Under the pieces are notes generated by a model, which worked only from the letters and a program-made list of their open reading frames with translations, ran no database searches and had not been told where the DNA came from. DNA of 64,000 nt, from the NCBI GenBank assembly GCA_944384425.1, contig CALWTI010000001.1, positions 9-64,008 on the forward strand, read 5' to 3'. Source of the stretch: an uncultured Clostridia bacterium (GTDB lineage: Bacteria > Bacillota > Clostridia > Christensenellales > UBA1242). Positions 4,848 to 61,916 of this stretch are shown here, in pieces. A program made the position numbers and the translations under genes. Numbering within the stretch: the stretch's first letter is position 1; each line of letters opens with the position of its first letter.

Positions 4848-4922
4848 GCCTCGTTAGCTCAGTGGTAGAGCAACCGGCTGTTAACCGGTAGGTCGTCTGT
4901 TCGAGCCAGACACGTGGCGCCA
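4848..4922 (+). tRNA. tRNA-Asn (anticodon GTT), CCA encoded
   Basis: Manual cloverleaf: acceptor gcctcgt/acgtggc (one T4:T69 mismatch), D arm gctc-agtggta-gagc, anticodon arm accgg-ctGTTaa-ccggt, T arm gtctg-ttcgagc-cagac, discriminator g, then cca. Confidence 0.9.
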
Positions 4923-10672: not shown

Positions 10673-13600
10673 TTATTGCACTGTGATATTTAAAGTATTT
10701 GTATATAGTACGATGTCTTGGGCTCCTTGTTTTTCTTCACCACTTAAATTGTCATAAACTGTTATATAAAATTCAACATCTACACTTATTGAATTAGATG
10801 ACAAATTAGTTGAATTTAATACTAGTGAATAACTGCCATTATTGTTTTTAAGTGTGACATCTGAACTTTTTACGCGAACATAAATATCATCCACATTCAC
10901 CCCGTACATACCAGACAAAAGGGTAAACACATTTTTATAGTTCTCGTCGATTCTTGTGGATAAATATGTAACGACTTCACCAGTAGTTGCATCAATTGCC
11001 GAGCCTTTCTCTTGATTTCTATACAAGAATGAACAATTAAACGCTTTTCTATTACTATCGATGCCATACTCAATAGTCAAAGATATTAACTTTTTATCAT
11101 AACCAGAAAGCGAACCAGATGAGACAAGTAAGATACCTTCTGTGCTAATTGTGACATTGAACATATTATCAATCTGAGTGCCGTTTACATATGTGCTAAT
11201 TATCGTAGCTGATACTCCTGATGTAAATGGATATTGTGTACCAATGTCATCTTTTGAGATAAATATAAAGTCATTTGTTTGTGTTTCTTCGCCCTCAGGG
11301 TCTACAAGCGTTGTGATTGTATTGTACCCGTAAACTTTAATATCTGAGAAGTCAATAACATTACTATTTACAAAGTTGATTGTACTTTCTCCTGGCTCCA
11401 TTGCTAGATTTGCCTCTCCGTTTATTTGTTCCGCGTTTTTGTAAACATAAACGGTAATTGTGCCGTATTTTGTTAAAGCTGTGTTGTCAGTTTGTGATAA
11501 GTTATTACCCAAAGTGTAAGTTAGAGTTGTCAAAATTCCATTTGTCGTTGTTAAGCAAATAACTTTATCAGAGTTAATCAATTTTTCACTATCTTCTATA
11601 GAATCTAAATTAAATATGTCAAGTCCAGAATCTATGTTTCCATATATATTTCTAAGTTGAATTTTAGGAAGCAACTTCTTGAATATTTCGTCTGCCCCTT
11701 CTGTTGAAACACATTCGTATATTGAACTTGAAACAAGACTATTTGCGCCATAGCGTGTGTCAACAAACGAAATGTTATTGAGTCTAACTCCAACATCATC
11801 ACTTCCTTTAAGCTGAACAACCATATAAATGCTTGAATTTGCATATTTGTTTGGAATTGAAATTGAATTTACACCGTCCCAGTCAACTATTTTTCCCAAG
11901 TTTTCACCTTGTTGTGTTTCGTACAAACTCACAACAATATCAGGGAAACGAGTTGTTATTTCTTTGCCTGTATATACCCTTGAATGTTCATCTGATATTG
12001 AGAGCATTTGAAGTATGTCTTTGGTCTTGACATCAAAGTAATTCTCCGTTTTGCTTGCGACCTTTGGCAATCTTGGCACGTTGGCCGTAATTGTGTAGGT
12101 TGTTGCACTTGCGTCTGTGAAATACAATCTCACTGTGTCAATGTATTCACTGACATCTTTCTTTTCTCCATATTTAACCGCAATGTCAATCATAAGGTAA
12201 TTAGACTCTATATTAAATCCTGGATACAATGTTATTTTTCCGTTCTCATCAATTTTTGCATATTGGCTTCCGCTCGACTCTGCTGTGTTTATTGAATAAA
12301 CAAAGTCACCACCGTTGCCACTAAGTGTGGTGTTATCAGAATCTACAAACGAAGTTGCAGATGTGTATCCTGCCACGAGCTCAAATGGTCTGATTGTTGT
12401 CCCAGCCCAAGTGTCAAGTTCAACAACAGTGTCGTCACCAGAGATGTATGAATCCAAAACAACATTTCTTGCTTGCTCTGAACCATATGCAAGTGTTGAA
12501 TCAACATCAACATATTTTAAGGTTATTCTTATGTCAGCAGTGTAGTTCTTTACATTTTTGGTTGCAACACCATTACTAAATCCATATGAAACATTAATTT
12601 GAATACTACTTTCGGCATACTTTATATTTAAACCATCAGTGCTTGTTAAGAATGTTGAGCCGTCATTTATATACTTTACCATATTGTAGATAAGCGTACT
12701 CTCATCACTATCTTCACTATCGGTACTTTCAGCAAAAGATATGCCTTTTAATTGTGCCCACTGACTCACGCTCAAGCCATCAATAATTGTTCTTGATGAA
12801 TTTGTGTAGAGTGACACTTTTTGAGAACCTTGAATTACACCAAGTTCACGCAGTGAGTATGTCGCGACTTCATTCTTATTTGCAGTCAAACTCACATTTT
12901 GTACTTCACCTGCTTCATTTACGAAATAAACTGTTAACTTTGAATCGTTTTCAATTTCTCTTAAACCTATTGATAGTGTTTGGTCTGCTATTATATAAGA
13001 GGTATTTATCTTTATTTTGTATGTCTTATTTTCAGTTTCTTGAGCATTGTCATGATATGTATAATTAAACTCTGAAGCTTCTGATTCACCTTTGTAAGCA
13101 CTGCTTGTTTCGTTAGACAAATAGTAATATACGCTTCTATCTCCATCTGAATAAGTGAATTGATTGCCCGCAACAATTGAAGTACTTGTATTTACTCCTT
13201 TTTCGTCATAGACATAAGTCGTTACCGAGTAAGTTATTTGGAAACGATAATTGCTTATATCTGTTATTCCGAAGTTATCTATTGAGAAGTAAACTTCAGA
13301 ATTGTCACTTCTCGGAATTGTAAGTGAAATTTTTTGATTGTTTTGCAAATTGGTTGCAGTAACTTCCAATGAAAGTACATTTTGCACATCAGTAAATTTC
13401 ACTTCGTGACCATCATTGTCAAATATGGTGTAATCAAAATATATTGTGTACGAATCTTTAAGACTTCTTTCGCCAACTGTATAATTTTTACTATTGTCCA
13501 CAACGTCAATGATATCAAGCAAACTAAACTCTACACCATCTCTCACATATGGAGTATCGCTCGTCGACAAACTGTATCTTTCACGTATGACTGTTGGAAT

Positions 13601-16600
13601 TTTTATTTCAATTTCATTGCCTTCGTCGTCTTTGGCACTTAATGTTAAATCTCCATATATTCTGCCATCACTATCAGCAAACACACTGTAATCTAATAAA
13701 CCGATTTGGAAATAAAATACTTGTGATTGGTTAGCACCTGTACTCAAAACATCAAAAGTAATAGCATTATTCCCAGCATATTCAAAACTTGCAGTCCAAT
13801 TTGCACTGAATCTAGCAAGCGTCATTTTGTCGCCAGAATCACGATTTACAAATGTGACAGGTATGGTGTGGTTATATTCATTTACAGATGTGTCCTTATC
13901 AATTAGAGCCACCGTATCTAACTCAAACGCAGTCAGAGTGTTAGTTGTGTAACTAATGTTATATTGAGCAACTATTGTCACATAATATGTCATTTTGTAG
14001 CCATATGGGTCAGTGAGTGTGATATCTACATTTTTGTTACCAAACTTGATGTCAGAGAATTTGAATGCCAAATCATAGTTTTGTGAACTTTGTTCATATT
14101 TAACCACATATTCCCCACCCTGGTCATAAGTGACATTAAACATAGGGGCGACGTTGCCTGGTTCGTTTTGATTCTCGTTTTTATGTTCAATGTATATGTA
14201 GTTTGCAATACTTGAATTTTCAATAATTGATTTGCTACCCCATTTTGCAAAGACTATGTAATCTATGAAATTGTAATCGCGAATCAAATTTCTATTTAAA
14301 GAAGTGTTTATTGTTCTATCTGAGTTAATTAAACTTTCATTGACATAGTCATGACTTACAATAAATGAGAAAGTATAATCTTTTGTTATTGCGCCATAGG
14401 CAACAGTTAACACCAAAGTCACTGTAACAGTAGTTTCTTTTGGTGAGCCATATGCCATAAAGTTATAGTCGTAGTTAATAGCATCACTTTCGGCAGCAGT
14501 GTATCTTAAATATCCAACACCATCTTTAATGAGATTTTGATATTCAGAATTTGTTGCACTGTTTGACATCTTTTCAGTAATGTTCAAACTTAGTCCTGTG
14601 CTCGAAAAGTCAGAAGGTAGATAATAAGTGTTATCTGAGCCCCTCTTCATATTCAAAAGGCTAATATAGTTTGCGTTGCCATATCCCGCACCATTGTGTA
14701 ATACGCTAGTGTTTTGACCTGCTGACAACTCAATGTCACTTGTCTTGTCAAATACAATATCAAAGCCGTAGTTAACATAATATGTACCGATTGCAGTTCC
14801 TGCTGTTTGGTCGGCGATTGCATGACCATTTCTTGTGTTCACATATATTGATTTTGATATCACTTGTTCTTGGGTAATAGTTTCGCTTGATTGAACAAGT
14901 GTGCAATCTGTTCCACTTAAAAGTCCGTATGTTTTAAAGAAATCAATAGTAGTGAATGAAGTTGTTGGGACATCACCACTTGGACTTAATGCTGTAACTG
15001 TTCTGTAAGAAAGGCTAATTCTTGAATCAAATGAAATTTCAAGATTGTTCCATACATCATCAAGTGTCTGTACTCGCTCATATTCTCCATTATCAGAAAG
15101 TTCATATATTTCCCAAGTCACGCCCATATCGCTTGATACAAAGCCTGTCATATCCGAAACTGTCAAGCCTGAAAGCGTCACATAAAATGAAATATTAGTT
15201 CCTTGGCTCCCCTGAGCAAGTGCCACATAATCTGAATTTGCACTTAGTCCATTTATTGCAGAAATTTTAACATATTTTGTTGTAGAAAGGTCTACACCCA
15301 TTGGAACGGCAAGTGTCACTTTGATTTTTGAAAGTATATCATCATTTGAGCCAATGTATATATTTTCTGGATTATTTGAACTGTTAGTCATTACAGATGT
15401 GTTGTAGTTGTATCCTGTAAATTGATAAACACTATTAAATACAACAACATTGTAAACCCCAATTGGAATAAATGTTGTCTGTCCGTCTAATGCATAATAT
15501 AGACCAAATTGAATGTTAAGACCATCATACACGCTAACATGTTCGCTGGATTGAATACTAAATTCTGTGTTCAAATTCAAATATTGGTTACCAACAGCTT
15601 CGCCGTTTGCATAGACATATTCAGCACCATTTCCAACCCTGACATAAATGTGACTTGCGTAATTAATATCATCGCTTTGAGCTTCTTCGGTGTTTTCGCT
15701 TTGAACTTCAACACGTACCCCCTGTGCAAGGTCTGCCATTTCTGTTAAAGAAATAACATTTTGTGCATTAGCCGACGAATCAAACCAATATGACTCGGCA
15801 ACTGCAATCAAGTCGTCATTTGGAGATGGATAGTTTGTGACAATTTTGAAGTTTGGAGTAACCGTAAAGTTAAAGTACGAGTTCATGACCAAAATATCAT
15901 CGCCACTTACTGTATTATAATATGATACTCTAAATGACAAATTTGTTTCATCAGCAACTTCGCTTATGTCTAACTGTACAACATAATGATTGTTTTCATC
16001 TAAAACAACACTACCTTTGAAATCACCATATGCATTTTGGGTTATAAGTTCAACGCTCAATTTACCAAGGTTGTTATCAACAACATTTTGATACCACTTA
16101 TCAAAGTCTACGCCAGTGTAATCAAACAATGACAATAATATGTTGTCGACATCTTGTGTCTTGCCTGCTTGAATATTCTCAACTGGCAACATATTGTTTT
16201 GAGATATTTGCTGATAATTAAGCGTGCCAACTTTTAATGTTGCTTTAATCGTAAGTGAAAAATCAAAGTTGTATGTGACACTTTGTGTGTCATCTGTAAA
16301 TATAAACTTAATTTTAATTTTAACAGCTGTATCTTCTGTAACAACGCCAATTTTTAAACTGTTTGTTTCTTGAACATATTGTATTGCTGAATTTGGCGTC
16401 ACAATTTCAGCAGTTATATTATCAAAATCACTAAATGTTTCACCTGTGTCATCTTTAACAATTTGGAAGGTATCTGCTATATTTAGTACATTGCCTACCT
16501 CAATTTCATAAGCACCAGATGATGCTTCGGTCAAAACAGAATCATCAATAAGTTTGATGCTATAATTTGAAAGTACAAACAAGGTCACGACATTTAAAGT

Positions 16601-19600
16601 TCCATATTTGGTATAGAATACCATATTTGTGTTCCAGTTTTCTGTCGTATCGTCTGCATACAGTTTCATCGTGTCATAATCAATGTGTGCACTTTGACCG
16701 TCGACGCCTGTTGGAACGATATAATAACACAACAACTCATTTGCTGATGTTAAACTACCTGACTGATTTAAGTACATTGAAAGTGAATATAACCCATCAA
16801 GCGATAAACCTTCATCGCCAGCTTTTAAGTTTATATCCTCAATATCTGGAGATGAAACTCCCATTTCTGTGCGTTGTGTGAAACTAAACTCAGGGATTTC
16901 ACCTGCACTTATATAATAGTAAGCTGTAAGTCCACTTTCGGTTGTCATACCAACTTTAACTCTGACATATTGTGCACCGCTACGGTTTATTGTCACAACT
17001 CCGTCAGAAGTTACTTGAGCATATAAAGAAACATTTTTTGCTGTGAACCAACCATAGAAATAGTATGCCACTTCAGAAATACTAAATGTCAATTTTGATG
17101 ATGGTACTGGCTCAACTTGTGGCGTAAATTGTCCATTTACGAGAATACCAACCACAATTCTCTGCCCGTTTTGTGAATTTGGTGTGAGATTGTCAAATCT
17201 TTCAAGAAGATTTAATTTTGCACTGCCTTTGTCATCAAAACTCAAATACTCCATATCGTACTTAACGTCTTGAACATTGCCATAAAGCTCACTACCACTA
17301 ATGTTTTGATTTTCAGAATTACCCAAAACATATGGATAGTAAATATTTACATCTAGCATTTGCTCAATTTTTACTAGGTATGGAACAATCAAACTATTTA
17401 CTGCACGATTTAATTTAGCTTCAATAATTACATATGTTTCTTTCCCGACTGGCTCAACAATAAGTTTGTCACCATCAAATCTTGCATATGAGTGCAAGTC
17501 TTGTTCATCTATGTTCTTAACAGATAATATAGAGCCTTTTAAGTAGCTTGACAATCCGTAATTTTGTGTCTGCCCGTCAATAAAGATGTTGTAGCCATCT
17601 GCATTATATTCTGAAATTGTGTAATAAAGTCCATTCTCCATCACCCAATCTATGTCAAGCAGGTCAAGAAGGTCATATTCTTGGTCCTGAATTTGGTTTG
17701 GATAAATAACATATGGTAAATCAAAAGGTAAAAGTATGATATTGAATATAATGCTGTCGCCACTGCTTAAAGCTAATACTGCTGAATTTTCTGCAATTAT
17801 ATTGTCGTTTACCCCTTGAATTGTGACAATGTTACCTTGAACCACAATGTTATTAGTGCTTTCTATGTTTAACTGTGCAGTAATTTGAGCAGTACTATTT
17901 TGGTCATGCGTTATAGTAAATGCTTGCAAAATATCATCAAATGTATATTGCTCGCCATTGACAAATTTAATGTAGTACTCTCCGCCATAAAGCACCCACA
18001 TTGTGCTATCAGTGTTCCTTGTTATGTTTGGACGAACATTGAGTGTAATTTCATATGTCTTTCCGTCTGATGTCAAAACATCAATGCCGTTGTATGTAAC
18101 AATAAGTTTGACATTTTTACTGTTGTTTATATTTGAAAGACTGTAAATAACAAATTCATTTGTTGCAGGCTTTTGTTGTATAGCGAAATTGTTGCTATCA
18201 TTTTCGTCAACAAACCTAAATCCTATTTGTGAATAGTCTATATCAAATGCTATGCCGTCAATTTCAATGTTTGAATTATATATTCTATTTATGGTAAGTG
18301 GTGCATTTACTGTTCCAAGAAGTGTTGCACTTCCATAATAACGAGTACTGCCACCGTTTATTGTATCATATGCAACATCAAGCAAAATCTCATCACTTGA
18401 CTGGGTTGTCATCACATTTGGATTGATGTAAAGATATATTTGACTTGAAGCATCGACACTTGCATTTATTTGAGCATCGCTTACATTTTTTTCAAATGCG
18501 AGCATCACTCTTCTGTATCCGTTGTTTTCGGTCAAAGATTTGAATACAATGTAAACATCATAGTTGTATATATCTTTTGAGCCGTCTAGTCTTTGTACAC
18601 CAGCATTGTTTTGTATTTCTTCATTATCCCCACTCAGCTTAAAACTTGCTACATATGCATTTGCGTTGGCGTTTGCATTGTTGCCTAACAAAATTTTGTC
18701 ACTAAGGTCACCATTTTCGTCATATTCATAAAGGAATAGAGAATATGCAGATTGGTCAAGAGTAAAATCTTCTGAGCCCGTTCCTGCCAAATAGTGAACT
18801 TGTATGCTTACTTTATAAAGCGAATCAGCATAAGCTCCAAGATAAGGGACATTGCCAACACTTGAAATTGGTTCAACTTGATAATCATTACCAGACGAAT
18901 TTAATGCCAATGTGATATTGCTTTGAATTTCAAGCACAACTATTTGTGAAATTCCCAAAGGTGCTACTGTTATGCGAAGTTGCAAACTATATGGTTTGCC
19001 AAAATCTTTGAGTATAGTCAAACCGCTGAGATTTGATGTTGTTCCCTCGAATCCAACATAATCTTCAAGAACCGTTGCGTCTTGGTCGTTAACAAGTGAA
19101 ATATTCAAAAGGCTTGTAAGATATCCGCTTCCACTTGGCGAAGTGTAATAATATGTTAAAAGGTTTGCATCGCCTACCGTTGTGGATTTAAAGTTTACTA
19201 TTGAGCCTGCGTATCCGACAACTTTGATTGATTGTTGTGCAAAATCATATAATTTTTCAGCGCTATACTCTTGCGACACCATAGATTTTGAGTATGGAGC
19301 AGAAGGCGTTTCTTGCAACTGTTCAACTTTTGACACATAACCTTCTTGCACGCAAGTAAAGTAAAGTGTATCTTTCACAGCCCCCTTTGCGTCACGAAGA
19401 TAAACTTCGACATTTCCTGTACCATTAAACGTGAAGGTTCCGTTTGAGACAGTCAAAATTGATGTATTTGAACTTTCCAAAGTGTACTGGCTTGAAATTG
19501 GCAATTTGCCATATTTGTCAGCAAGCACAACAGAAAGTGTTGAATAGTCAATTTCCCCAAGGTCATCTGTTTCAAAAAGCATACTGCTTACATCATTGCC

Positions 19601-22018
19601 ACCAAGTGTGTATGATGTTGTGATGCTATTAATGTAATCGTTTTGTGATGCTATGTTGGTGCTGACCAAAATTCTATTGTCTACACTTGACTCATATATT
19701 CCATCTTCTTGTATGTTCAAGTTGAAATCAAACACTGTTGCAGAGCCGTCATAAACTTCAATGCAATCAAAAGTTTGAGCGTCGTTATATAAGTTGACTT
19801 CGTATTCTCTAGGTGCATTGAATGCGTCATTGTCGTATACAACATAGAGTTTTATTCTGCGTTCACTCACTCCGTCCGAAAGTTCGCCAATATTCATTGA
19901 AAATGCAAATTGTGTGCCATCATTTTGTTGCGTTACAGAGTCAGTATAAATAAGAGATGTTTCTGAATTTGACTCTTCTATTTTTGCAACGACATAAATT
20001 TCATTGTTGTTCACTGCGTCCGCAAATATTTGTTGTTCATTTATTTGTTCGCTCTGTGTCGCTGATTGTGGCAAAGCAAGCTTAACAACAACTTCAAATG
20101 GAGCAGTTGTGTTTTGAACATATGCTATATCATTTGTTTCGTCATTTAATGTCAAGTTATCGTCGCTGAGTGCTGTTTGAATATGATTTTCAAGTCCATA
20201 AAGTGTTTTGTCAACATACAAATCAAGAGTGCTTATCGCATTAAGATTGTCTTGACTGTATTTTTGCACAATATATCTTTCTTGTTCATCAAGTTTTGGA
20301 TTACCTTTATAATCTGTTTGAATGGTCATAAACAGTATTTCAAAAGTTCTGCCATAAGCCTCAGTTGATTTTGGTTGAATTATACCTTCTTCAATTTCAT
20401 AAAGCGTAACTGTTTGTGCACCGAGTTGATAATCAACAGCTTCACCCTTTGTGTAAATTAAGTCACTCACTGAGTATTGCGAAGATTCCAAAACAAAGTA
20501 TTTAGGTGTTTTGTATAAATTTTGTTGTGGCACAACAGCTAGTGGTTTTACATCAAAAGATTTGAAAATTGGATTTTCACCGTCAATTATTGTAAGCGTT
20601 TCGCTGGTTTTTGACCAATAGATGCCTGCATCTGTAACTGCATTGGTAGAAAAATCTACTGTTAATGGTTCAATTTGTTCAAAGTTTTTACCAAAATATC
20701 TAATTTCGATGCGAATAGCATTTGCATCAACATATTTTGAAACTGCAAATTCCCACAAATAATCGTCAACACTTTGAGTGATTTTTGGGAAATAATATGT
20801 ATAAACTTGTCCGTCAATCTCAACTTGTCTTGTTTCGCCATAGCCATCATCTATCATAGAAACAATGTTATATGCACTGTTTTGATTGTTTACGGCATCA
20901 TAATAGCCATTACCAACTTTATATAAAAATCTTATTCCGACGTTTTTAAGTTCATTTTGAAGAGAAATTGACTCATCAAGACTTGAATAAAGTTTAATTC
21001 CAAGATTTGACTGTCTTGCAGACTGAGTCACATTTTTGTTTGCATAAAGGGTGTGCGTTGTATCAATATCGACATTATTCACAGTCCCTTCAAGACGCAT
21101 ACTATCAACTTCGACTTCAACAATGTTGAATGCTTTTACAGCTTTATGTGCCTGCAAAGATGTTTCTGAAGACTGTGTTGAAAGTTGTTCAAGTCTTGTA
21201 AGCACTGCCGAATATTTTGCTTCATCATCTAGGTTTTGCAAACCAAGAAGTATTCTCTCTTCAATTGGGGTTGACGAGAACACATATCCAACAATGGTGC
21301 TTGAACCTATGCGATTTGTTAAAAATGAATTTGTGTGCTCATTTTGAGTAATATTTTCATCGGTTGTTGACTGTGGCATAAAATATGTAGTTTTGTATTC
21401 CACTTCACCGTCTGAACCATCATGACTATATTTGTATGCACTGCGCTCTGGATAAAATTTCAAACTTGCATTCACAGTTGAACCAACTGCAAAAACGTCG
21501 CTATCTTCTTCCTGCGCGCTGACGCGTGTTTCAAGTGTAACGCTATAAACTGGGACATCGACATTGACCGTAGCATTAATTGGGTTGATTTTTTGATTTT
21601 GAGAAGTTGCAGTAATTACACTATGCCCACCTGTTATCCAATCTAGCCCACCACATTCATCATCATGAAGCGTTTTGTTAAGTGTGACATTAAAAGGCTC
21701 ACCTATTGTTGCAGTTTGAGGAATTGAAATAACTCCGTCACTAATTCTAACTTCACCATTTTTTTCAGTGTACAATTCACCATTTTGCAAACTTAATGTC
21801 AGTTGTGTAACGGTCACATCTTCTGTTGTTGTGGTAATTGTGATTGAAAAATCGCTATCGACATTATAGACATCTCTGTCAAAAGCAATGTTTTCAGGCA
21901 TAATACTTGGTTGGTTGAAATATCCGGCTATTGCCATAACACCGACGCCAATGCCAATCGCACCAATAAAGCACGCAAGTGATATTGCAAAAACTTTTAA
22001 AAATGTAGTAAATTTCAT
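10673..22018 (-). CDS. Giant protein A: 3,781-aa N-terminally membrane-anchored surface protein of unknown function
   Basis: 11.3-kb stop-free frame in AT-rich DNA. RBS GGGAG lies 7 nt before the ATG. The N-terminus MKFTTFLKVFAISLACFIGAIGIGVGVMAIAGYF is a long hydrophobic signal-anchor. The rest is N/S/T/V/D/Y-rich, Lys-poor and beta-strand-like. By eye there are no GLUG-like motifs, catalytic motifs or LPXTG. Confidence 0.9.
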   Translation of the reverse strand: MKFTTFLKVFAISLACFIGAIGIGVGVMAIAGYFNQPSIMPENIAFDRDVYNVDSDFSITITTTTEDVTVTQLTLSLQNGELYTEKNGEVRISDGVISIPQTATIGEPFNVTLNKTLHDDECGGLDWITGGHSVITATSQNQKINPINATVNVDVPVYSVTLETRVSAQEEDSDVFAVGSTVNASLKFYPERSAYKYSHDGSDGEVEYKTTYFMPQSTTDENITQNEHTNSFLTNRIGSSTIVGYVFSSTPIEERILLGLQNLDDEAKYSAVLTRLEQLSTQSSETSLQAHKAVKAFNIVEVEVDSMRLEGTVNNVDIDTTHTLYANKNVTQSARQSNLGIKLYSSLDESISLQNELKNVGIRFLYKVGNGYYDAVNNQNSAYNIVSMIDDGYGETRQVEIDGQVYTYYFPKITQSVDDYLWEFAVSKYVDANAIRIEIRYFGKNFEQIEPLTVDFSTNAVTDAGIYWSKTSETLTIIDGENPIFKSFDVKPLAVVPQQNLYKTPKYFVLESSQYSVSDLIYTKGEAVDYQLGAQTVTLYEIEEGIIQPKSTEAYGRTFEILFMTIQTDYKGNPKLDEQERYIVQKYSQDNLNAISTLDLYVDKTLYGLENHIQTALSDDNLTLNDETNDIAYVQNTTAPFEVVVKLALPQSATQSEQINEQQIFADAVNNNEIYVVAKIEESNSETSLIYTDSVTQQNDGTQFAFSMNIGELSDGVSERRIKLYVVYDNDAFNAPREYEVNLYNDAQTFDCIEVYDGSATVFDFNLNIQEDGIYESSVDNRILVSTNIASQNDYINSITTSYTLGGNDVSSMLFETDDLGEIDYSTLSVVLADKYGKLPISSQYTLESSNTSILTVSNGTFTFNGTGNVEVYLRDAKGAVKDTLYFTCVQEGYVSKVEQLQETPSAPYSKSMVSQEYSAEKLYDFAQQSIKVVGYAGSIVNFKSTTVGDANLLTYYYTSPSGSGYLTSLLNISLVNDQDATVLEDYVGFEGTTSNLSGLTILKDFGKPYSLQLRITVAPLGISQIVVLEIQSNITLALNSSGNDYQVEPISSVGNVPYLGAYADSLYKVSIQVHYLAGTGSEDFTLDQSAYSLFLYEYDENGDLSDKILLGNNANANANAYVASFKLSGDNEEIQNNAGVQRLDGSKDIYNYDVYIVFKSLTENNGYRRVMLAFEKNVSDAQINASVDASSQIYLYINPNVMTTQSSDEILLDVAYDTINGGSTRYYGSATLLGTVNAPLTINRIYNSNIEIDGIAFDIDYSQIGFRFVDENDSNNFAIQQKPATNEFVIYSLSNINNSKNVKLIVTYNGIDVLTSDGKTYEITLNVRPNITRNTDSTMWVLYGGEYYIKFVNGEQYTFDDILQAFTITHDQNSTAQITAQLNIESTNNIVVQGNIVTIQGVNDNIIAENSAVLALSSGDSIIFNIILLPFDLPYVIYPNQIQDQEYDLLDLLDIDWVMENGLYYTISEYNADGYNIFIDGQTQNYGLSSYLKGSILSVKNIDEQDLHSYARFDGDKLIVEPVGKETYVIIEAKLNRAVNSLIVPYLVKIEQMLDVNIYYPYVLGNSENQNISGSELYGNVQDVKYDMEYLSFDDKGSAKLNLLERFDNLTPNSQNGQRIVVGILVNGQFTPQVEPVPSSKLTFSISEVAYYFYGWFTAKNVSLYAQVTSDGVVTINRSGAQYVRVKVGMTTESGLTAYYYISAGEIPEFSFTQRTEMGVSSPDIEDINLKAGDEGLSLDGLYSLSMYLNQSGSLTSANELLCYYIVPTGVDGQSAHIDYDTMKLYADDTTENWNTNMVFYTKYGTLNVVTLFVLSNYSIKLIDDSVLTEASSGAYEIEVGNVLNIADTFQIVKDDTGETFSDFDNITAEIVTPNSAIQYVQETNSLKIGVVTEDTAVKIKIKFIFTDDTQSVTYNFDFSLTIKATLKVGTLNYQQISQNNMLPVENIQAGKTQDVDNILLSLFDYTGVDFDKWYQNVVDNNLGKLSVELITQNAYGDFKGSVVLDENNHYVVQLDISEVADETNLSFRVSYYNTVSGDDILVMNSYFNFTVTPNFKIVTNYPSPNDDLIAVAESYWFDSSANAQNVISLTEMADLAQGVRVEVQSENTEEAQSDDINYASHIYVRVGNGAEYVYANGEAVGNQYLNLNTEFSIQSSEHVSVYDGLNIQFGLYYALDGQTTFIPIGVYNVVVFNSVYQFTGYNYNTSVMTNSSNNPENIYIGSNDDILSKIKVTLAVPMGVDLSTTKYVKISAINGLSANSDYVALAQGSQGTNISFYVTLSGLTVSDMTGFVSSDMGVTWEIYELSDNGEYERVQTLDDVWNNLEISFDSRISLSYRTVTALSPSGDVPTTSFTTIDFFKTYGLLSGTDCTLVQSSETITQEQVISKSIYVNTRNGHAIADQTAGTAIGTYYVNYGFDIVFDKTSDIELSAGQNTSVLHNGAGYGNANYISLLNMKRGSDNTYYLPSDFSSTGLSLNITEKMSNSATNSEYQNLIKDGVGYLRYTAAESDAINYDYNFMAYGSPKETTVTVTLVLTVAYGAITKDYTFSFIVSHDYVNESLINSDRTINTSLNRNLIRDYNFIDYIVFAKWGSKSIIENSSIANYIYIEHKNENQNEPGNVAPMFNVTYDQGGEYVVKYEQSSQNYDLAFKFSDIKFGNKNVDITLTDPYGYKMTYYVTIVAQYNISYTTNTLTAFELDTVALIDKDTSVNEYNHTIPVTFVNRDSGDKMTLARFSANWTASFEYAGNNAITFDVLSTGANQSQVFYFQIGLLDYSVFADSDGRIYGDLTLSAKDDEGNEIEIKIPTVIRERYSLSTSDTPYVRDGVEFSLLDIIDVVDNSKNYTVGERSLKDSYTIYFDYTIFDNDGHEVKFTDVQNVLSLEVTATNLQNNQKISLTIPRSDNSEVYFSIDNFGITDISNYRFQITYSVTTYVYDEKGVNTSTSIVAGNQFTYSDGDRSVYYYLSNETSSAYKGESEASEFNYTYHDNAQETENKTYKIKINTSYIIADQTLSIGLREIENDSKLTVYFVNEAGEVQNVSLTANKNEVATYSLRELGVIQGSQKVSLYTNSSRTIIDGLSVSQWAQLKGISFAESTDSEDSDESTLIYNMVKYINDGSTFLTSTDGLNIKYAESSIQINVSYGFSNGVATKNVKNYTADIRITLKYVDVDSTLAYGSEQARNVVLDSYISGDDTVVELDTWAGTTIRPFELVAGYTSATSFVDSDNTTLSGNGGDFVYSINTAESSGSQYAKIDENGKITLYPGFNIESNYLMIDIAVKYGEKKDVSEYIDTVRLYFTDASATTYTITANVPRLPKVASKTENYFDVKTKDILQMLSISDEHSRVYTGKEITTRFPDIVVSLYETQQGENLGKIVDWDGVNSISIPNKYANSSIYMVVQLKGSDDVGVRLNNISFVDTRYGANSLVSSSIYECVSTEGADEIFKKLLPKIQLRNIYGNIDSGLDIFNLDSIEDSEKLINSDKVICLTTTNGILTTLTYTLGNNLSQTDNTALTKYGTITVYVYKNAEQINGEANLAMEPGESTINFVNSNVIDFSDIKVYGYNTITTLVDPEGEETQTNDFIFISKDDIGTQYPFTSGVSATIISTYVNGTQIDNMFNVTISTEGILLVSSGSLSGYDKKLISLTIEYGIDSNRKAFNCSFLYRNQEKGSAIDATTGEVVTYLSTRIDENYKNVFTLLSGMYGVNVDDIYVRVKSSDVTLKNNNGSYSLVLNSTNLSSNSISVDVEFYITVYDNLSGEEKQGAQDIVLYTNTLNITVQ

Positions 22019-22077
22019 AACTTTACTCCCACAACAAAACCGACTTTAAATTATTATTTACATTATTAGACAAAATA

Positions 22078-22106
22078 ATTATATAGTTTACGCCTATTTA
22101 AGTCAA
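22078..22106 (-). promoter_or_regulatory. Consensus sigma-A promoter of giant gene A
   Basis: Minus strand reads TTGACT-taaataggcgtaaacta(17)-TATAAT. The predicted leader is about 50 nt. Confidence 0.7.
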
Positions 22107-22337
22107 TCAAATTAAAATCAAAATATACTCGAAATAAAAAATATTTCAAAAAAATAATTATGAAAATAAAAAATAATTTATATAAATATTGAAAAAATAA
22201 AAAAAAATATAAAAAAATAAAAATAAAAAAACTTTTTTATTATAAATAAAAAAGTTATGCGTTTTTTGATTTTTAATATGTTTTTTTGATTTTTGTGTTA
22301 TATTTCAGAGCTGCTTCAATACTCAAAATATTGTATG

Positions 22338-22366
22338 TTGACAAAATGTGCTATTTGGTATATAAT
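22338..22366 (+). promoter_or_regulatory. Consensus sigma-A promoter of the 884-aa membrane protein gene
   Basis: TTGACA-aaatgtgctatttggta(17)-TATAAT, then AGGAGG (22384-22389) and the ATG at 22395. Confidence 0.75.
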
Positions 22367-22394
22367 TCATATAAACTTTAATAGGAGGTTTACC

Positions 22395-25049
22395 ATGTCA
22401 GATAGCAAGTCAGGTTTTTACATTAACATAAAATACAAAGACCATGTTGAAAGTCAGAATTTTAAAATGGAAAAAGGCGATGATGCAATTTGCCTTTATG
22501 AAAAAAATCAAGACAATGCAATTATGGTGGTTGAACCACTAAGTAAAACATTCTCTATTGACAATTCGTCACATAGATTTGACGCAATTTCAAAAAACGA
22601 TGTTATTATCTTTCGTGGTATTAAAAATGTCAGCGCTGAATATAACAGCGATTTTGTTGTTACAATTGACACCGAAAAAGGTAAACAAACATACAAAATT
22701 TCACACAACGCATTAAGCGTGAAAAATGGAAAAAGCTTTCAACCTGTTGTGAGTTTTGAACACCCACTTGATGTCACATTGCCAGAGAGTTTGCCATCTC
22801 AAATTCAAAACAACAGCATAAATATGTCAACATTCCCTGCCCAAATGACGCAAATGCTTATTGAAGCTTATGGATATAGTTATCTTAAACTTGAAAATGG
22901 TATGACAATATTAAAATCACCAGACGGAAAAATCATATTCCCTGATGGCTCAAAATTAGCAACCTCAACACTAACAGATATAGTTAAAGCGCCTAGTGGA
23001 CTTGTTTTGAGATTTTTACCAAGTATGGAGATGAAAAAAATGAAAGAAAATCGAGTTAAAAAAGGAATTAACATAACCGAGAAAGATGCCAACGCACTAA
23101 ATCAGTTTATGGGCAAAAATCAAAGTCTTGATGATATTCCTACCTTAACATCAGATTCTTCATATGTAAAAATTAAAAAATCTTCATCAGCTTCAAGACT
23201 TGGCAAAGACCAAAAGGAAAAGCAAAAAGACGAAGAACCTATTTATAATGTTGCCTTTAACGACAATAATGATAAAAAATATAACGTTGACATTGACCAA
23301 ATGAGCAAGGACAGCATTAATAAAGACACAGTAGACACTTATGAAAATTCAAGTCAAACCAATATCCTTGACAACATATCCACCACTAATGACAAAGTTG
23401 ACAGTAAAATAACCGACTATGTCACAACCGAAGGTGTGGACAGCAACGATGTTCTTAAAGATTCAGATTCAAGTTTGGGCATTCGTTCAAACGACGCTCA
23501 AAATCAAACAAATGACGAAACGCAAGAAGAACAAGCTAACCAAACCGAAGCTACTCAGCAAGATGCAGAATTAAAAAAACAAAATGATGACAACTCTGAT
23601 CCAGACAACAATGCTCCAGCATCTTCCTCAACAGAGCGTGCGCAAACACAACCAAAAGACAAAAAAGATGATGGCGTAGAAAATGGCAACATAAAGGCTA
23701 GCAGCGAGCAAACCCCTACCGACGAGCAGAATGCTCCCGCTCCAAGCGATAAGAGTGATAAGGACAAAAGTGATAAAGACAAGAAAGAAGCAATAAAGCA
23801 AAATGACGATAATCAAAAAAAGACCATGGACGAGAAAAAGTTTAATATGTTCCATAAAGGTTTAAGGCTGATTCTTTTGGTTGCCGCTGCCAACTTCTTT
23901 ATGGCAGGATTTATGCTCGCAAATCCTTTATTTGCCTTTCTTGCAATCGTGTGTATTACTGGTATGGCAGCTTCGGCATGGGCTCAAAATGCAAAATTCT
24001 TATTCAGTTCAGTATTTAGTATTTTCAAAGATATTCATGATTATTTCAAAGCTAAACACGCAATCAAAGAACTAACAAAGAAAGAAGAAAAGAAACTTAA
24101 CAAACTTTTAGAAAAACAATCAAATGGTCTTTCAAAACGCCAGCAGAAAAAACTTAACGCCTTAAAAGAAAAAGCAGAAATAGCAAAAACGAAGACTTTA
24201 AGCAAAAGAAAGACCAGAAAGATGAATAAATTGCTAAGTAAACAATCAGAGGGTCTTTCAAGACGCGAACAACGAAAACTTAACTCCTTATTGAAAGAAA
24301 AAGAAAAGATAACTTCTCTAAGCAAAAGAAAAACCAAAAAGATGAATATATTGGTAAATAAACAGGCCAATGGACTTTCAAAGCGTGAGCAAGACAAGCT
24401 TGAGATGTTACAAACAAGAAAAGAACATGACATGTCTTACACAGAATATAAACAATTTAAGAAAAACGATGCACCTTCTATGTTCTCACTAAATCAATAT
24501 AAAGCCACAGCACAAAAACAAGAAGATGCTTTCAGACTTGCAAAAGCGCAAAAGCTTGCAGAAATTGACAAAGAGATAATGTATCGCAATAAATACTTAG
24601 ATTTTGGCAAAAAAGCCATTCCAGAGCAAACACGAGAAGCAATCAAAGAAGACACCAAAAGGTTAATGGCATACAGAGAAAATGTTAACCAATTAGAAAA
24701 TATTTCTCAAACATCAAACAGAGAAAAAATTAGCAACATTGAAAAATCATTGATAGAAAAGCCAACCAATTGGCTTAATGAAGACCTAAATATTGACGAA
24801 ACATCATTTGAAAAAATGGCAGAGTCAATGGGCATTGAACAACCTTCTTTGGAGATTGACAACCAAACATTAAAGAAAAGCGAAGAAGAGCTTATTAGAC
24901 GCGTTGAACAGCTATCACAAAATGAAGAGCAATCACAAAACCAGCAAGAAGATAAGACTAGTGAAATCAATGATGCTCAGCAAAATGATGACGTTATAGA
25001 ACAAAATCTTCCACAAATTAATCACGACGATGAGACCCTGACACGCTAA
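22395..25049 (+). CDS. 884-aa membrane protein of unknown function: N-terminal globular domain, acidic disordered linker, TM hairpin, basic coiled-coil-like C-terminus with tandem repeats
   Basis: Start is set at the ATG at 22395 (AGGAGG RBS, promoter at 22338-22366). The track start at 22293 is a TTG upstream of that promoter. There is no signal peptide. A low-complexity D/N/Q/S/K region spans about 23180-23840. Two hydrophobic helices span 23862-23984. K/R/E/L-rich repeats span 24072-24437. Confidence 0.85.
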   Translation: MSDSKSGFYINIKYKDHVESQNFKMEKGDDAICLYEKNQDNAIMVVEPLSKTFSIDNSSHRFDAISKNDVIIFRGIKNVSAEYNSDFVVTIDTEKGKQTYKISHNALSVKNGKSFQPVVSFEHPLDVTLPESLPSQIQNNSINMSTFPAQMTQMLIEAYGYSYLKLENGMTILKSPDGKIIFPDGSKLATSTLTDIVKAPSGLVLRFLPSMEMKKMKENRVKKGINITEKDANALNQFMGKNQSLDDIPTLTSDSSYVKIKKSSSASRLGKDQKEKQKDEEPIYNVAFNDNNDKKYNVDIDQMSKDSINKDTVDTYENSSQTNILDNISTTNDKVDSKITDYVTTEGVDSNDVLKDSDSSLGIRSNDAQNQTNDETQEEQANQTEATQQDAELKKQNDDNSDPDNNAPASSSTERAQTQPKDKKDDGVENGNIKASSEQTPTDEQNAPAPSDKSDKDKSDKDKKEAIKQNDDNQKKTMDEKKFNMFHKGLRLILLVAAANFFMAGFMLANPLFAFLAIVCITGMAASAWAQNAKFLFSSVFSIFKDIHDYFKAKHAIKELTKKEEKKLNKLLEKQSNGLSKRQQKKLNALKEKAEIAKTKTLSKRKTRKMNKLLSKQSEGLSRREQRKLNSLLKEKEKITSLSKRKTKKMNILVNKQANGLSKREQDKLEMLQTRKEHDMSYTEYKQFKKNDAPSMFSLNQYKATAQKQEDAFRLAKAQKLAEIDKEIMYRNKYLDFGKKAIPEQTREAIKEDTKRLMAYRENVNQLENISQTSNREKISNIEKSLIEKPTNWLNEDLNIDETSFEKMAESMGIEQPSLEIDNQTLKKSEEELIRRVEQLSQNEEQSQNQQEDKTSEINDAQQNDDVIEQNLPQINHDDETLTR
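24072..24437 (+). repeat. In-frame tandem repeat, 3 units of 126/120/120 bp (each unit made of two LSKRxxxKLNxLL half-units)
   Basis: Unit 1: LTKKEEKKLNKLLEKQSNGLSKRQQKKLNALKEKAEIAKTKT. Unit 2: LSKRKTRKMNKLLSKQSEGLSRREQRKLNSLLKEKEKITS. Unit 3: LSKRKTKKMNILVNKQANGLSKREQDKLEMLQTRKEHDM. Unit starts are at 24072, 24198 and 24318. Confidence 0.85.
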
Positions 25050-25080: not shown

Positions 25081-25120
25081 ACAAAAAACAGTCGTTTTAA
25101 TCAAACGACTGTTTTTTATT
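25081..25120. terminator. Bidirectional rho-independent terminator between convergent genes
   Basis: 13-bp stem aaaacagtcgttt/aaacgactgtttt with a 5-nt loop, an A-run on the left and a T-run on the right. Confidence 0.75.
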
Positions 25121-25754: not shown

Positions 25755-26639
25755 TTACACCACAGTGAAGTTTGCTTTGACATTTTCACCGGTATCTGCA
25801 TCTTGATATGTTATCCAATATCCATATTCATTTTCCTTTGTACTGTCAAGTGGAAGCCACTCAGCATAGCCACGAAGTTCTTTTGGTGGTGCATCAGTGT
25901 AAAGCCCTGGCACGCCATAACATATGTATTTGACTTTATCGTTTTCATAGATAAGTCCCAAAACGTAGTAATTGTCACCGTCCTCATTTTCAACCTTAAC
26001 CCACTTTGAGTATGGTATTATTTGCGACAAAAACTCCTCTTCGCTGTGAGTTGAAAACAAACTGCCTATATCTTCACTTATGCTATCATAAAAGCTCTCA
26101 CTCTTATTTTCTTCGCCATTTTCATCACTAAAAAATGCATAGCGATATTTGCAAGTTGTGCACTTGTCACCACACGCTGAAAGCTGACTATCTATTTCAC
26201 TATCAATTTTTTCTTGGTCTTCAAGCTCAATATGGTTTTTATCAAGCACATCTTTGCACTCTTCGTAACCTTTAACATCTTGCATTTCAAGTACTGCCTG
26301 AGCTAAAAATTCGTCAGAAAGCTTGCTGTTTTGTGTGCATCCGTGAAGTAATGGCTTTGCTTCGCCTTTGTAAATGTTTACAACTGCGCAAGAAAATTCG
26401 CCAAGCTCCAAAGGGGTCTGCGTTGCAAAAGTATACTTAAAGTTTCCAACTCTTGTTAAACCAATTTTAACAACCCTCTCTCCTTCTTTTAAGCCAAGCG
26501 ACAAAATTCCATTTGGCTCATCATGAAAGTTATATAACCTAACTTGTCCCTGCGTGTCGCCACTTTCTTTTTCAAAACTTATTACCGCTTTTTCGTTGCC
26601 ACCATCAACAGATGACAGTACCAAAGTTTTTTTTAACAT
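25755..26639 (-). CDS. Conserved-looking hypothetical protein (294 aa) with a central Cys cluster
   Basis: AGGAG lies 6 nt before the ATG at 26639. It has an acidic middle, CGDKCTTCKYRY, and a C-terminus YYVLGLIYENDKVKYICYGVPG..GYWITYQDADTGE. No family recognised. Confidence 0.6.
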   Translation of the reverse strand: MLKKTLVLSSVDGGNEKAVISFEKESGDTQGQVRLYNFHDEPNGILSLGLKEGERVVKIGLTRVGNFKYTFATQTPLELGEFSCAVVNIYKGEAKPLLHGCTQNSKLSDEFLAQAVLEMQDVKGYEECKDVLDKNHIELEDQEKIDSEIDSQLSACGDKCTTCKYRYAFFSDENGEENKSESFYDSISEDIGSLFSTHSEEEFLSQIIPYSKWVKVENEDGDNYYVLGLIYENDKVKYICYGVPGLYTDAPPKELRGYAEWLPLDSTKENEYGYWITYQDADTGENVKANFTVV

Positions 26640-26721
26640 AAACATCTCCTAAAAATAAAAAAATTACACTATATATTATAGTGAAATTTTGTGTTTATGG
26701 TGATTACAATAATGGCAAATA

Positions 26722-32801: not shown

Positions 32802-35800
32802 TTATTCATTCGAAGGCCAAGAAGAAATGTCGCCATTAATATAGCCGTAATACCCGTCTCCCACTCTTTCAAAGTTATTTATGCTGAAATTGCCAAGCTT
32901 AGCTTCTAACCCTTCATAGCCAGATGGAGAAAAACCATAAACCACAGTAGACAAATAAATTGCATATTGAAGTGGTATTCCTGTAATTGTATTGCCCATA
33001 CGCAAATTTTTTATTGACAAATCAATTTCCACATTTAGCCCATTTCTTACTGCCAACTCGATGTCATTGACTTCTTCTAAGATGTCGCCATTGTATCCGC
33101 CAATAAGCTTGGATACATAAACTCTATAAAGTTCTGAACCTTCTTCTTGTTCTGTATCACTTATTGAATTGTCACCATAAATGCTGATATCAGATGAAAT
33201 TGAAGTGTTTATACTGTTTGCAATTATTTCCAAAGTGCCACCTTCTGTTACGCTAGCACCGTCACTTGTAATTAAACCAATAACACTTCCAGCATAACTT
33301 GCATCCGATGTTTCTTCTTGTGCTAGTTTTGCTGGTTTTATAAGTTTGAGATTGGTTGCTTCATCTTTGCCAACTGTAAAGTCAGTGATTATGACATTAC
33401 CAAAAGTTCCACTAAATTCCACTTCGCCAATAATTCCACCAAGTGCATTTTGACCAGTTAAATCACCAGTAAAATTACTATTATTTATTGTCACACTTTG
33501 CGAAACTTTGCCTGCAAGTCCGCCCACACTGTCAACTGCAATGGTATTATTAAATTGTATGTCTATGTCAACATCACAATCATAAATGTTTGCTGGTTGC
33601 TGTGCAGAGCCTCTGACAATTCCACAAAGTCCACCAACTGCAATTGGAATTTTTGGCGTGAGATTGAAGATATAGTACGGCGTCACATCTTCGCCGTCTT
33701 CTATACTTACGCCTGAAACTTTGACATTTCTTAATGTTCCTTTAAGGTCGCCGACAATAATGCCACCATAAGCGCTTGCACGAATAAAGTAATTATCAAG
33801 CATTTGGTATTCATACGAGATGTCACGAACTTCTGCATTCATACCAATTCCGCCAAACATAAATCCGCTCACCATTCCTATTGTTGCAACGGCGTTTGTT
33901 ATGTTTGCATTTTTGAGTACACCAACTCCACCAAGATATCCAACAATACTTCCTGAATACGAAACAGTGTTATAATTTGAACCACCTTCTTCATAAAGTA
34001 TTTCTTTTTGAACAGATTGAGTTGTCCAATTAGAATTGTTGTTTGTTTGATAAGCATTTGTTGAAATTGAGGAGTATATATTTTGAATATCAAATGAATT
34101 TATTGTTCTTCCGAAAACTCCTCCAACAATGTTCTTTCCCAAAATCACATTTGAACTATTTCCAGAGTTATACCCATCGACAGTTATGTTATAAGCATAA
34201 ACTCTATAAACTGTACCTGCGACCGTACCAACATTGACTGCATTTGGAAGGTTTATGTATTTTGGAGAAAATTCAACATTTTGTATTGTTGCATAATCAT
34301 TACCATCGCCTATTTGTGCGAAGTATCCGCCCGATGTTAGTCCCGTACTTGTGTTGATTGAGAAGTTTGAAATAGTAAGACCATTGCCTTCAAAATATCC
34401 TGCTAGCGTGTATGAGTATAGCGAACTTACAACCAAGTTTTCTGCTGTGTAGTCAATATCTTTAACAAGTCTGTAATATTTTGAGTTGACATTTCTTATG
34501 CTATTTGAAATAAAATCTTCTTCAAATCTCACAGCTGATGTCACAATAATTGGGTTATACATTGAGCCTTCAGTGTTAGAGCCAGATGTTTCCGCGTACA
34601 CATACAATGTTTCGCCCGTTTCTTCAACATATTGACTGCTTTCTATATATTTTGATGACGATGCTAATATGTTTGCAGCAACTAGTTGTGGTCTATTCTC
34701 TCTAAATTGCATATATTGTCCATCGCTTTGCAAACTCTGAACAGTGATAAGCCTTGAATATTGCAAATAATTTCTATAATCACTTGCTGAAATTTTTGAG
34801 CCCGTGGTAATTGTGTTGTTAGTTAAATATGAATTGTTGTCTTTTGCATAGAACCAAACACCACTTGTTATGTCGTTGTTTGTGTTTATTGCAAAGGTGT
34901 TGAACAATTTTTCCCCAACAGTGTAATCTGAACCACTTGATGTGACTGCATAACCAATAGCAAACGAAATCACTGGTATTGCAGTCAAGCCTTCGCCGTA
35001 AAGTCCATTTGAAACATTTATTCCAACATTGAAGTTTTCATCACTTAAATAATAACTATCACTTATTGTTCCTGTGCAAGTGATATAGAATGGATAGTTA
35101 CCTGTGTCTCTATCTCCAAGTTTACTTGTTGTGTAAGATGATATTATTTCCCCGTTATTTGTACAAACAAATCCAGAGTTTATTGATGAAGATGTCAATG
35201 GAATATTTGCATAACAATTTGATATAGTTCCCTCATTTATATAAGCAAATGCACCCGCAATTGAGTTTGCTCTTATGATGTAATTTGTGTCTGTGGCGTA
35301 TATGTATGAAAGTCCAGTGGAAAATGCACCTTCAATATAACTTGCAAATACCGTTCCATAGTTTTGAGCAACAAAGCCCGCTGTGGAGTTGTTAACATTT
35401 GTACTTGAATTTCTTATGTAACTTCTCTTTACATAACTTGATGCAATGTGTCCATTATTTACTGCTACAAAGCCAGCAAGGTTTGCACCAAAACTTTCAA
35501 TGCGAACATTCACTCTTGAATTTGTTATAAAGCCCGAGTTAACCGCAACAAAAGGTGCAATGTTTGAAGTTGAAGTGAGTGACATAGGCGCCGAATTCGT
35601 CACGATGAGCGATGATGCATCATCTTGATAAACAACTCGGCAGTTGGTTATTGTGCCGTTGTTTTGAGCAGCAATTAGTCCAAAGTTAAATGAGTTAGCA
35701 CTGCTTTCATTTCTAAAATTGAATGTTGTGTTTCGACCAATCTCGACTGTTAGGTTGCAAATAACTGAATTTTCATCAACTGTTGAGAATAGTCCGAAGT

Positions 35801-61885: not shown

Positions 61886-61916
61886 AGCGAACTCCTCATC
61901 TATTGTTTTCAAATTT

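Follow-up and report, generated by a model that had tools for sequence, protein, structure and literature searches.

The flotillins FloA and FloT are anchored by a hydrophobic hairpin, lie for the most part in the cytoplasm and carry charged helical C-terminal regions. In the metazoan endoplasmic reticulum (ER), the protein p180 (RRBP1) consists of a membrane anchor followed by highly basic tandem repeats on the cytoplasmic side and then a C-terminal region that is acidic (PMC3326322), and a passage of that paper citing earlier work states that depletion of p180 preferentially blocks the secretion of large matrix proteins. The HMW1 and HMW3 proteins of the Mycoplasma pneumoniae attachment organelle are presented in PMC4923136 as cytoplasmic accessory proteins that are largely disordered and acidic or proline-rich, and HMW1, according to literature cited there, is needed for trafficking of the P1 adhesin. 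Here we describe a locus that shares elements of organisation with these systems, within a 64,000-nucleotide stretch of an uncultured Clostridia bacterium (contig CALWTI010000001.1, positions 9 to 64,008; hereafter the window). The locus encodes an 884-residue membrane protein of no recognised family, here named X884 after its length, and, head-to-head with it, an exported giant of 3,781 residues, giant A. We report that this pair is conserved across a family of such loci, and that the two proteins very probably work together, as judged from gene order and sequence.

X884, the product of the open reading frame (ORF) at 22395..25049 on the forward strand, and giant A, at 10673..22018 on the reverse strand, are divergently transcribed from genes 376 bp apart. 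Every member of the X884 family with readable upstream DNA was found head-to-head with a giant ORF of 3,200-3,800 amino acids (aa), at a spacing of 250-640 bp, in about 17 independent loci. These comprise close relatives of X884 (L001-L013), distant members whose N-terminal domains are 20-26% identical to that of X884 (P0012/L015, P0023/L017, P0020/L020 and P0022/L021), and members that lack this domain (P0040/L023, P0048/L031 and P0045/L032); three other loci (L014, L018/L019 and L024) end too near the gene to show an upstream neighbour. The partner giants that we compared by blastp are all collinear orthologues of giant A and are unlike giants B and C of the window; their identity to giant A is 34-67% over about 3,200 aa, and in the two most distant it is 25-37% in patches.

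The opposite flank of the X884 homologues differs at least 7 times, and holds gmk/ksgA/tatD; the genes for release factor RF-1 and PrmC; tyrosyl-tRNA synthetase (TyrRS); a leucine-rich repeat (LRR) protein with M50, CdsA and UppS; LysR, RnlAB and an integrase; an iron-dependent alcohol dehydrogenase (Fe-ADH) with YhhN; or an unknown gene. Thus, retained synteny alone does not account for the pairing. In a reverse test, an alignment of giant A N-termini scanned against metagenome contigs identified nine loci, and an X884-family gene lay upstream in all four of the testable loci with a 40-62% identical giant. The preliminary description of this DNA had read the divergent layout as a hint of a functional link to giant A, and had named conservation of the gene neighbourhood as a check, with a lack of co-occurrence counting against the link; co-occurrence was found in every readable locus, about 17 in all, and the link is strongly supported. 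The role suggested at that time, in the biogenesis, localisation or regulation of giant A, stands in so far as a functional link is concerned, with regulation the least likely of the three. At one of the distant loci (L021, 14767..18883) the X884 homologue is followed on its 3' side by an RnlA/RnlB toxin-antitoxin pair, a tetratricopeptide repeat (TPR) protein and a phage-type integrase, an arrangement that indicates insertion of a mobile element beside the conserved pair.

We identified ten close homologues of X884 (36-99% identity) in a collection of 5.8 billion clustered proteins, and a hidden Markov model (HMM) of the N-terminal domain matched 31 proteins among 1.84 billion cluster representatives, 26 of them below an expectation value (E) of 1e-10; the domain was thereby recognised in about 28 more distant proteins. 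The family is small: among billions of proteins, X884 has close relatives numbering about 10 and distant ones numbering about 45. Three proteins (P0036-P0038) with weak matches in multiple stretches (total E 8e-6 to 4e-4) were left out of it, and P0038, the only one of these read in sequence, has an unrelated repetitive architecture. All of the named genomes with family members are metagenome-assembled genomes (MAGs) labelled 'uncultured Clostridia bacterium', with about 32-34% GC, and the contigs appear, by their sample and cohort names, to come from animal-gut metagenomes.

Most of the proteins found with the N-domain HMM are 650-850 aa in length and have the same order of parts as X884: N-domain, low-complexity acidic or proline-rich linker, hydrophobic block, basic stretch and charged C-terminal region. 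A hydrophobic block of 35-58 residues was present in all 29 family members examined, the 150 aa ahead of the hairpin were net acidic in 28 of the 29, the first 100 aa past it net basic in 27, and the remaining distal region net acidic in 26. The succession of charges, acidic ahead of the hairpin, basic just past it and acidic again further on, is thus kept in 26-28 of 29 members although their sequences have diverged.

The N-domain is the part that can be exchanged. A profile of the hairpin plus C-terminal core recovered a subfamily (P0039-P0054, 510-615 aa) without the globular N-domain, in whose place are a basic N-terminal segment and 1-4 'YPLEVREK...' repeats. Such proteins, as at L023 (2745..4616, reverse strand), begin with a basic segment rich in T and K and also contain a small element, 'KCKLYLVPNH..NLYYYFEE..KFYREVKPRKPR', that is conserved, together with a repeat unit of about 40 aa, 'YPLEVREKVLADR..ADK.VN.IT.KE', present in 1-4 copies; one of them matched a core HMM that had been built without it at E 9e-13, calculated for a nominal database of one million sequences. 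By these comparisons the linker, hairpin and C-terminal region form the invariant core of the family, with the N-domain as a swappable module. Because both the pairing and the hairpin/C-terminal core persist when the N-domain is replaced, the core presumably carries the link to the giant. X884 itself has each of the features by which we define the family, namely an acidic linker, a hairpin, a basic juxtamembrane region, a conserved C-terminal domain and a giant A orthologue encoded head-to-head.

We next consider the parts of X884, whose conservation we give as invariant columns in an alignment of 8 homologues. The N-terminal globular domain (aa 1-271; 22395..23207, forward strand, as are all parts of X884) has 119 of 271 columns invariant (44%) and no signal peptide. 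It is followed by the acidic, polar, low-complexity linker (aa 272-487; 23208..23855), with a net charge of -23, which is hypervariable in length and sequence, with many indels and 2 of 216 columns invariant (1%); there are 7 prolines in its 216 residues, and some homologues have linkers rich in Pro, Glu, Asp and Lys. The two-helix hydrophobic hairpin (aa 488-531; 23856..23987), the sole hydrophobic block of the protein, is conserved as well as the globular domain (20 of 44 columns invariant, 45%), and has a tight Asn-Pro turn, invariant in the close family; many of its conserved positions hold residues that are small or polar (G, A, N, S and C). The C-terminal region (aa 532-884) has 38 of 353 columns invariant (11%) and a net charge of +14, which is divided between a basic juxtamembrane region (aa 532-700; 23988..24494; net +28) with LSKR-QKKLN-type motifs and a distal region (aa 701-884) of net charge -14. 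Within the distal region, we distinguish a conserved domain (aa 701-830; 24495..24884), the C-terminal domain of the core shared by the family, predicted to be helical from composition alone, whose invariant columns include Q709, F713, I728, R731, W793 and P817, from an acidic, Q/E-rich variable tail (aa 831-884; 24885..25046), recognised by composition and alignment.

The LSKR-QKKLN-type motifs are encoded by a 120-bp tandem repeat of 2.2 copies within the basic region (24114..24382; Tandem Repeats Finder (TRF) score 279). Repeat copy number varies even at 93% overall identity between strains (884 aa as opposed to 842 aa), with P0002 and P0003 short of one 42-aa unit relative to X884, and LS/TK(R/K)EQxKL-type motifs occur in 1 to about 8 copies across related proteins, often singly. 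A crude home-made heptad score did not pick out any part of X884 as a coiled coil, the distal region included.

Most of this anatomy had been anticipated in the preliminary description. The strings that it quoted, SDKSDKDKSDKDKK, LRLILLVAAANFFMAGFMLA and LFAFLAIVCITGMAASAWA, are all present in X884, and it had correctly recognised an N-terminal domain without a signal peptide, for which there is no signal-like hydrophobic segment at the N-terminus, the acidic polar linker and the two adjacent hydrophobic helices. Its K/R/E/L-rich C-terminal region is indeed charged and is not uniform, being basic and then acidic, so that the 'bipartite charge design' of its heading is in fact an order of acidic, membrane, basic and acidic parts. 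Both large parts of X884 are predicted to face the cytoplasm, as had been proposed from the two-helix tether, because there is no signal peptide, 487 highly charged residues precede the hairpin, the hairpin turn is very short and both of its flanks are net basic; the presence of a single hydrophobic block in all 29 members examined agrees with this prediction.

Giant A is non-repetitive by self-comparison, rich in S, T, N, V, I and Y, and has a net charge of -258; we found no match to it in Pfam, PADLOC, PHROGs or the sequences of the PDB. It begins with an N-terminal membrane anchor, aa 1-34, MKFTTFLKVFAISLACFIGAIGIGVGVMAIAGYF (21917..22018, reverse strand; alignment A6), which is made up of a short basic tail and a long, small-residue-rich hydrophobic helix (GAIGIGVGVMAIAG), and beyond which the sequence is acidic. 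Giant A is accordingly predicted to be anchored with its N-terminus in and C-terminus out, with nearly the whole protein outside the cell and a cytoplasmic part of about 8 residues. The anchor was 67-88% identical between orthologues, as opposed to 21-78% for 100-aa bins elsewhere, and ranked top in five of five pairwise comparisons. Export signals are usually among the least conserved parts of secreted proteins, and since the conservation of the anchor helix exceeds this norm it probably has a sequence-specific role.

When the 5.8-billion-protein collection was searched with the C-terminal 800 aa of giant A (10676..13075, reverse strand), nothing matched at E <= 1e-10, even though its contigs carry called orthologous giants; this may reflect either a hypervariable C-terminus or a swamped word index, and the distribution of giant A was therefore judged through loci. 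Downstream of giant A, after a gap of 71 bp, comes a cardiolipin synthase gene (9135..10601, reverse strand) in the same orientation, which may be co-transcribed with it. If the basic juxtamembrane region of X884 binds anionic lipid, this neighbour could have a bearing on it.

The X884 gene has expression signals of its own. Its coding sequence (22395..25049, stop codon included) aligns with those of its homologues P0001-P0010 from an equal start, and is preceded by a TTGACA box (22338-22343), a 17-nt spacer and a TATAAT box (22361-22366), which together (22338..22366, forward strand) match the consensus at 12 of 12 positions, and by the ribosome-binding site AGGAGG (22383..22388, forward strand, read directly in the sequence), 6 nt ahead of the ATG. 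The promoter and ribosome-binding site had both been noted in the preliminary description, the promoter as perfect, and across 8 orthologous loci (alignment A5) there is little or no variation in the -35 box (TTGACAA), in the -10 box or in GGAGG, which is invariant. An alternative, longer ORF opens at TTG 22293, but we favour ATG 22395, because AGGAGG sits 6 nt 5' of it, because the 12/12 promoter falls within the longer ORF, and because every homologue begins at the equivalent Met. An intrinsic-terminator-like hairpin with a 15-bp stem and flanking A and T runs (25083..25117, forward strand) lies between X884 and the convergent guanylate kinase gene, and since this strong hairpin follows its stop codon X884 is probably monocistronic.

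Giant A has a separate promoter, TTGACT-17-TATAAT (22078..22106, reverse strand; 11 of 12 positions), which is conserved in the orthologous loci, and a leader (22019..22077, reverse strand) that is nearly invariant across them (alignment A5, columns 1-100). Taken together, the promoter and the leader of about 55 nt (22019..22110) remain nearly invariant at loci whose proteins share as little as 34-38% identity, and could be a regulatory or translation-control element. No Rfam family matched the intergenic region or the leader. The shared AT-rich control region of about 375 bp that had been described is AT-rich and measures 376 bp; it is in effect two separate near-consensus promoters, about 230 bp apart, around an AT-rich centre that is not conserved in the orthologous loci, and shows no evident shared operator.

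No known family was identified for X884, in agreement with the preliminary description. The full-length protein has no match in Pfam, NCBIfam, PADLOC, PHROGs or PDB sequences, its best Pfam matches lying far below the cut-off (DUF6249, E 0.11; Ribosomal_S18, E 0.8), and the family profiles did not match any PDB sequence. When 29 N-domains and 11 C-terminal cores were scanned singly, no family was matched by more than one member, and we consider the Pfam matches to TcpE (E 0.0065), Ribosomal_S18 (E 0.059), MG4 and SPOCS, each in one member alone, to be due to chance. A defence-system or phage origin was rejected with the PADLOC and PHROGs searches, which gave no matches, and none of the helix-turn-helix (HTH), winged-helix, DNA-binding or anti-sigma profiles matched X884.

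For the N-domain, a first AlphaFold2 (AF2) model from a 6-sequence alignment was discarded (predicted local distance difference test, pLDDT, 46), and a model from 29 diverse sequences was confident (pLDDT 91.1; predicted template modelling score, pTM, 0.87). This model is mainly beta, with helices at residues 133-138, 149-157, 210-214 and 229-238. Foldseek found no significant structural neighbour for it in the searched libraries: the top matches had E 6e-3 to 0.1, probabilities of 0.3-0.72, template modelling (TM) scores of 0.23-0.28 and a root-mean-square deviation (rmsd) of 10-13 A. The sole recurring theme among these top matches is the tandem PH-like domains of the histone chaperones Spt16-M, Pob3-M/SSRP1-M and Rtt106 (4ioy, probability 0.72; 9eh2_y, 0.63; 3tvv, 0.51; 2gcl; and 5ums), none of them significant, and the order of beta-sheets capped by helices in the model is compatible with two PH-like modules, at the same rmsd of 10-13 A. 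Literature searches on giant proteins in Clostridia returned nothing on the X884/giant A module. We therefore place the module, provisionally, outside the known kinds, in the sense of the absence of any match and not of a demonstrated new mechanism.

Our preferred reading, which we hold tentatively and at somewhat below an even chance, is that X884 serves the giant as a dedicated partner at the cytoplasmic face of the membrane, with its hairpin packing against the anchor of the giant. Under this model, the tight two-helix hairpin would insert X884 into the cytoplasmic membrane and leave the two large parts on the cytoplasmic side, and the hairpin, rich in small and polar residues, would pack within the membrane against the conserved and probably uncleaved anchor helix. 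The basic repeat region past the hairpin would rest on the anionic inner leaflet, and the acidic disordered linker would hold out the globular N-domain, which may engage a cytoplasmic component. X884 would thereby give an otherwise tail-less giant a cytoplasmic handle for its insertion, retention, clustering or positioning. Since the giant exposes about 8 cytoplasmic residues, any direct contact would have to occur within the membrane or during synthesis. Small residues of the type found in the hairpin and the anchor mediate helix packing, and packing between these two is the simplest model because each is the best-conserved short segment of its protein and both are rich in small residues.

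Several observations weigh against this proposal. The gene anatomy, the pairing and the patterns of conservation and charge are shown here, and from them we infer the topology of X884, its physical contact with the giant, and the direction and nature of any effect of one on the other. The pairing is not universal among all giant A look-alikes: four distant giant relatives (L027-L030, starting at about 4908, 2221, 4911 and 3276 on their metagenome contigs) have a gene for a 526-aa ABC-F ATPase upstream instead of an X884 homologue. These giants form one clade, match giant A in the first 200-370 residues only (29-35% identity), and have their own lysine-rich cytoplasmic tail of 20-25 residues before the anchor, whereas the X884-paired giants start MKFTTFLK... 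or MKRFL..., without such a tail; the tail may be complementary to X884, which would speak for the proposal, or, in a single clade, a coincidence. The family is confined to one bacterial lineage, so part of its conservation is shared ancestry. Co-evolution of hairpin and anchor, assessed by eye in 14 pairs, gave classes that track phylogeny, with L021 and L025 as exceptions and no clean co-variation of the two types, and is not used here as evidence. Finally, a shared operator or structured RNA was sought in the spacer and none was found, and neither the structure nor the sequence searches with the N-domain gave a hint of function.

Among the alternatives, X884 could be an independent envelope, division or membrane-organising scaffold that does not interact with giant A directly, the adjacency of the two being an inherited gene order. 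The restriction of all members to one clade of uncultured Clostridia would fit this, as would the separate promoters and unconserved spacer, the occurrence of distant giant relatives without an adjacent X884 gene, and the architecture, in which a hairpin is combined with charged helical regions and a disordered linker, as is generic for membrane scaffolds. We nevertheless consider it unlikely, because the pair outlasts at least 7 rearrangements of the other flank and holds after replacement of the N-domain, and because its persistence down to 20-25% identity in X884 and 25-37% in the giant would be unusual for a divergent pair without selection. Much less probable is a membrane-tethered regulator of giant A transcription, either a ToxR/CadC-like activator or an anti-sigma-like factor. 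A divergent layout is typical of regulator/target pairs, and the promoter and leader of giant A are nearly invariant; however, none of the profiles revealed a domain of the DNA-binding, HTH or anti-sigma kind, the hairpin turn, a very short loop on an invariant Asn-Pro, leaves no extracytoplasmic sensor, both promoters are of near-consensus sigma-A type with no conserved operator between them, and the N-domain is dispensable in a subfamily. We regard with equal scepticism an opposite or mixed topology, in which one large part of X884 would be extracellular and touch the ectodomain of the giant. The topology is a predicted one, and the hydrophobic block of up to 58 residues in some homologues would permit other arrangements; yet 487 highly charged N-terminal residues would then have to cross the membrane without a signal peptide, and with both hairpin flanks net basic and a very short turn an even number of spans is expected.

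A further possibility, which we rate as rather improbable, is that X884 acts like p180 as a platform for co-translational export. At the membrane, ribosomes or the 11.3-kb mRNA of giant A would be bound by its basic repeats, while long polysomes or translocons would be arranged by the N-domain and the acidic distal region, allowing efficient export of a highly acidic protein of 3,781 aa. X884 mirrors p180 in its order of anchor, basic tandem repeats (+28 over aa 532-700, directly beside the anchor) and acidic C-terminal region; like p180 it is tied to very large secreted protein, its partner being a giant exported one; and the basic character past the hairpin is conserved in 27 of 29 members. 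However, the resemblance is one of composition without sequence homology (Pfam and PDB-sequence searches showed none to p180 or kinectin), repeat number is variable and often a single motif, with 1-8 short motifs in the X884 family as against 54 repeats in p180, and a coiled coil was not demonstrated by our crude heptad scan. X884 further differs from p180 in having a two-helix hairpin and an extra N-terminal part of 487 residues, and in being genetically tied to a single client gene, a link that a general ribosome platform would not need; giants B and C have no adjacent X884-like partner. Binding of lipid would explain the basic juxtamembrane segments equally well, and in p180 it is the coiled coil rather than the basic repeats that is needed for polysome assembly (PMC3326322). 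A stricter form of this idea makes X884 a bacterial analogue of p180 dedicated to one client, the repeats capturing ribosomes or the 11-kb mRNA and the hairpin handing the nascent signal-anchor to the translocon, and we think this slightly more doubtful again. X884 would then be devoted to the co-translational export of one giant gene's product, and components of this kind have, to our knowledge, not been described in bacteria.

The remaining likenesses are more partial. X884 resembles HMW1 and HMW3 in its disordered acidic region, and several of its homologues in their Pro/Glu/Asp/Lys-rich linkers; it shows neither the acidic proline-rich domain nor the EAGR box of those proteins, with its 7 prolines in a 216-residue linker and no Pfam family detected, a scan that covers an EAGR-box model in so far as the library has one. 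There is no homology between them, HMW1 and HMW3 are cytoskeletal and not membrane-inserted, and X884 differs also in being encoded beside its presumed client, in a host that has cell-wall genes. With the flotillins, X884 would share the predicted hairpin anchor, cytoplasmic bulk and charged helical C-terminal region. The profile scans detected no SPFH/Band-7 or flotillin domain in it, and in contrast to flotillins its hairpin is in mid-protein rather than N-terminal and its gene is strictly paired with that of a giant.

The rest of the window looks like ordinary chromosome and includes gmk, ksgA, tatD, cls, glmM-like and murJ-like genes. It holds two more giants in tandem, of 3,137 aa (32802..42215, reverse strand) and 6,550 aa (42260..61912, reverse strand), both with lipoprotein-type signal peptides (LLSAC|G and VLYAC|G). 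Neither is related to giant A in sequence, and no X884-like gene lies next to them; the 3,137-aa giant has no Pfam match, and a giant of 3,174-3,188 aa occupies the same position, after holB, in L001 and L003. Between gmk and ksgA there is an ORF of 296 aa (25755..26645, reverse strand) without a Pfam or NCBIfam match, which has a counterpart of 293-294 aa at the same position in L001, L003 and L006. A tRNA gene (4848..4919, forward strand) is directly followed by a tyrosine-recombinase gene of the phage integrase family (5009..5947, forward strand), and the two may mark the edge of an integrated element.

Giant proteins are common and unannotated in uncultured gut Firmicutes, and orphan membrane proteins are common in uncultured lineages. 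How bacterial surface proteins of several thousand residues are produced, exported, anchored and positioned is poorly understood, above all in uncultured gut Firmicutes. The locus described here defines a conserved two-gene module, of a giant with an N-terminal helix anchor and a hairpin protein predicted to face the cytoplasm, and for neither component could a relative of known function be detected. The module is conserved to the limit of sequence detection, contributes a confidently modelled domain without a recognised structural neighbour in the searched libraries, and is a concrete candidate for a dedicated biogenesis or anchoring factor of giants. If X884 does act on the anchor of the giant in the membrane, or as a client-specific platform for ribosomes or mRNA, it would represent a new type of accessory factor in bacterial protein export; and should neither reading be true, X884 would still be a useful genomic marker for the giant A family.

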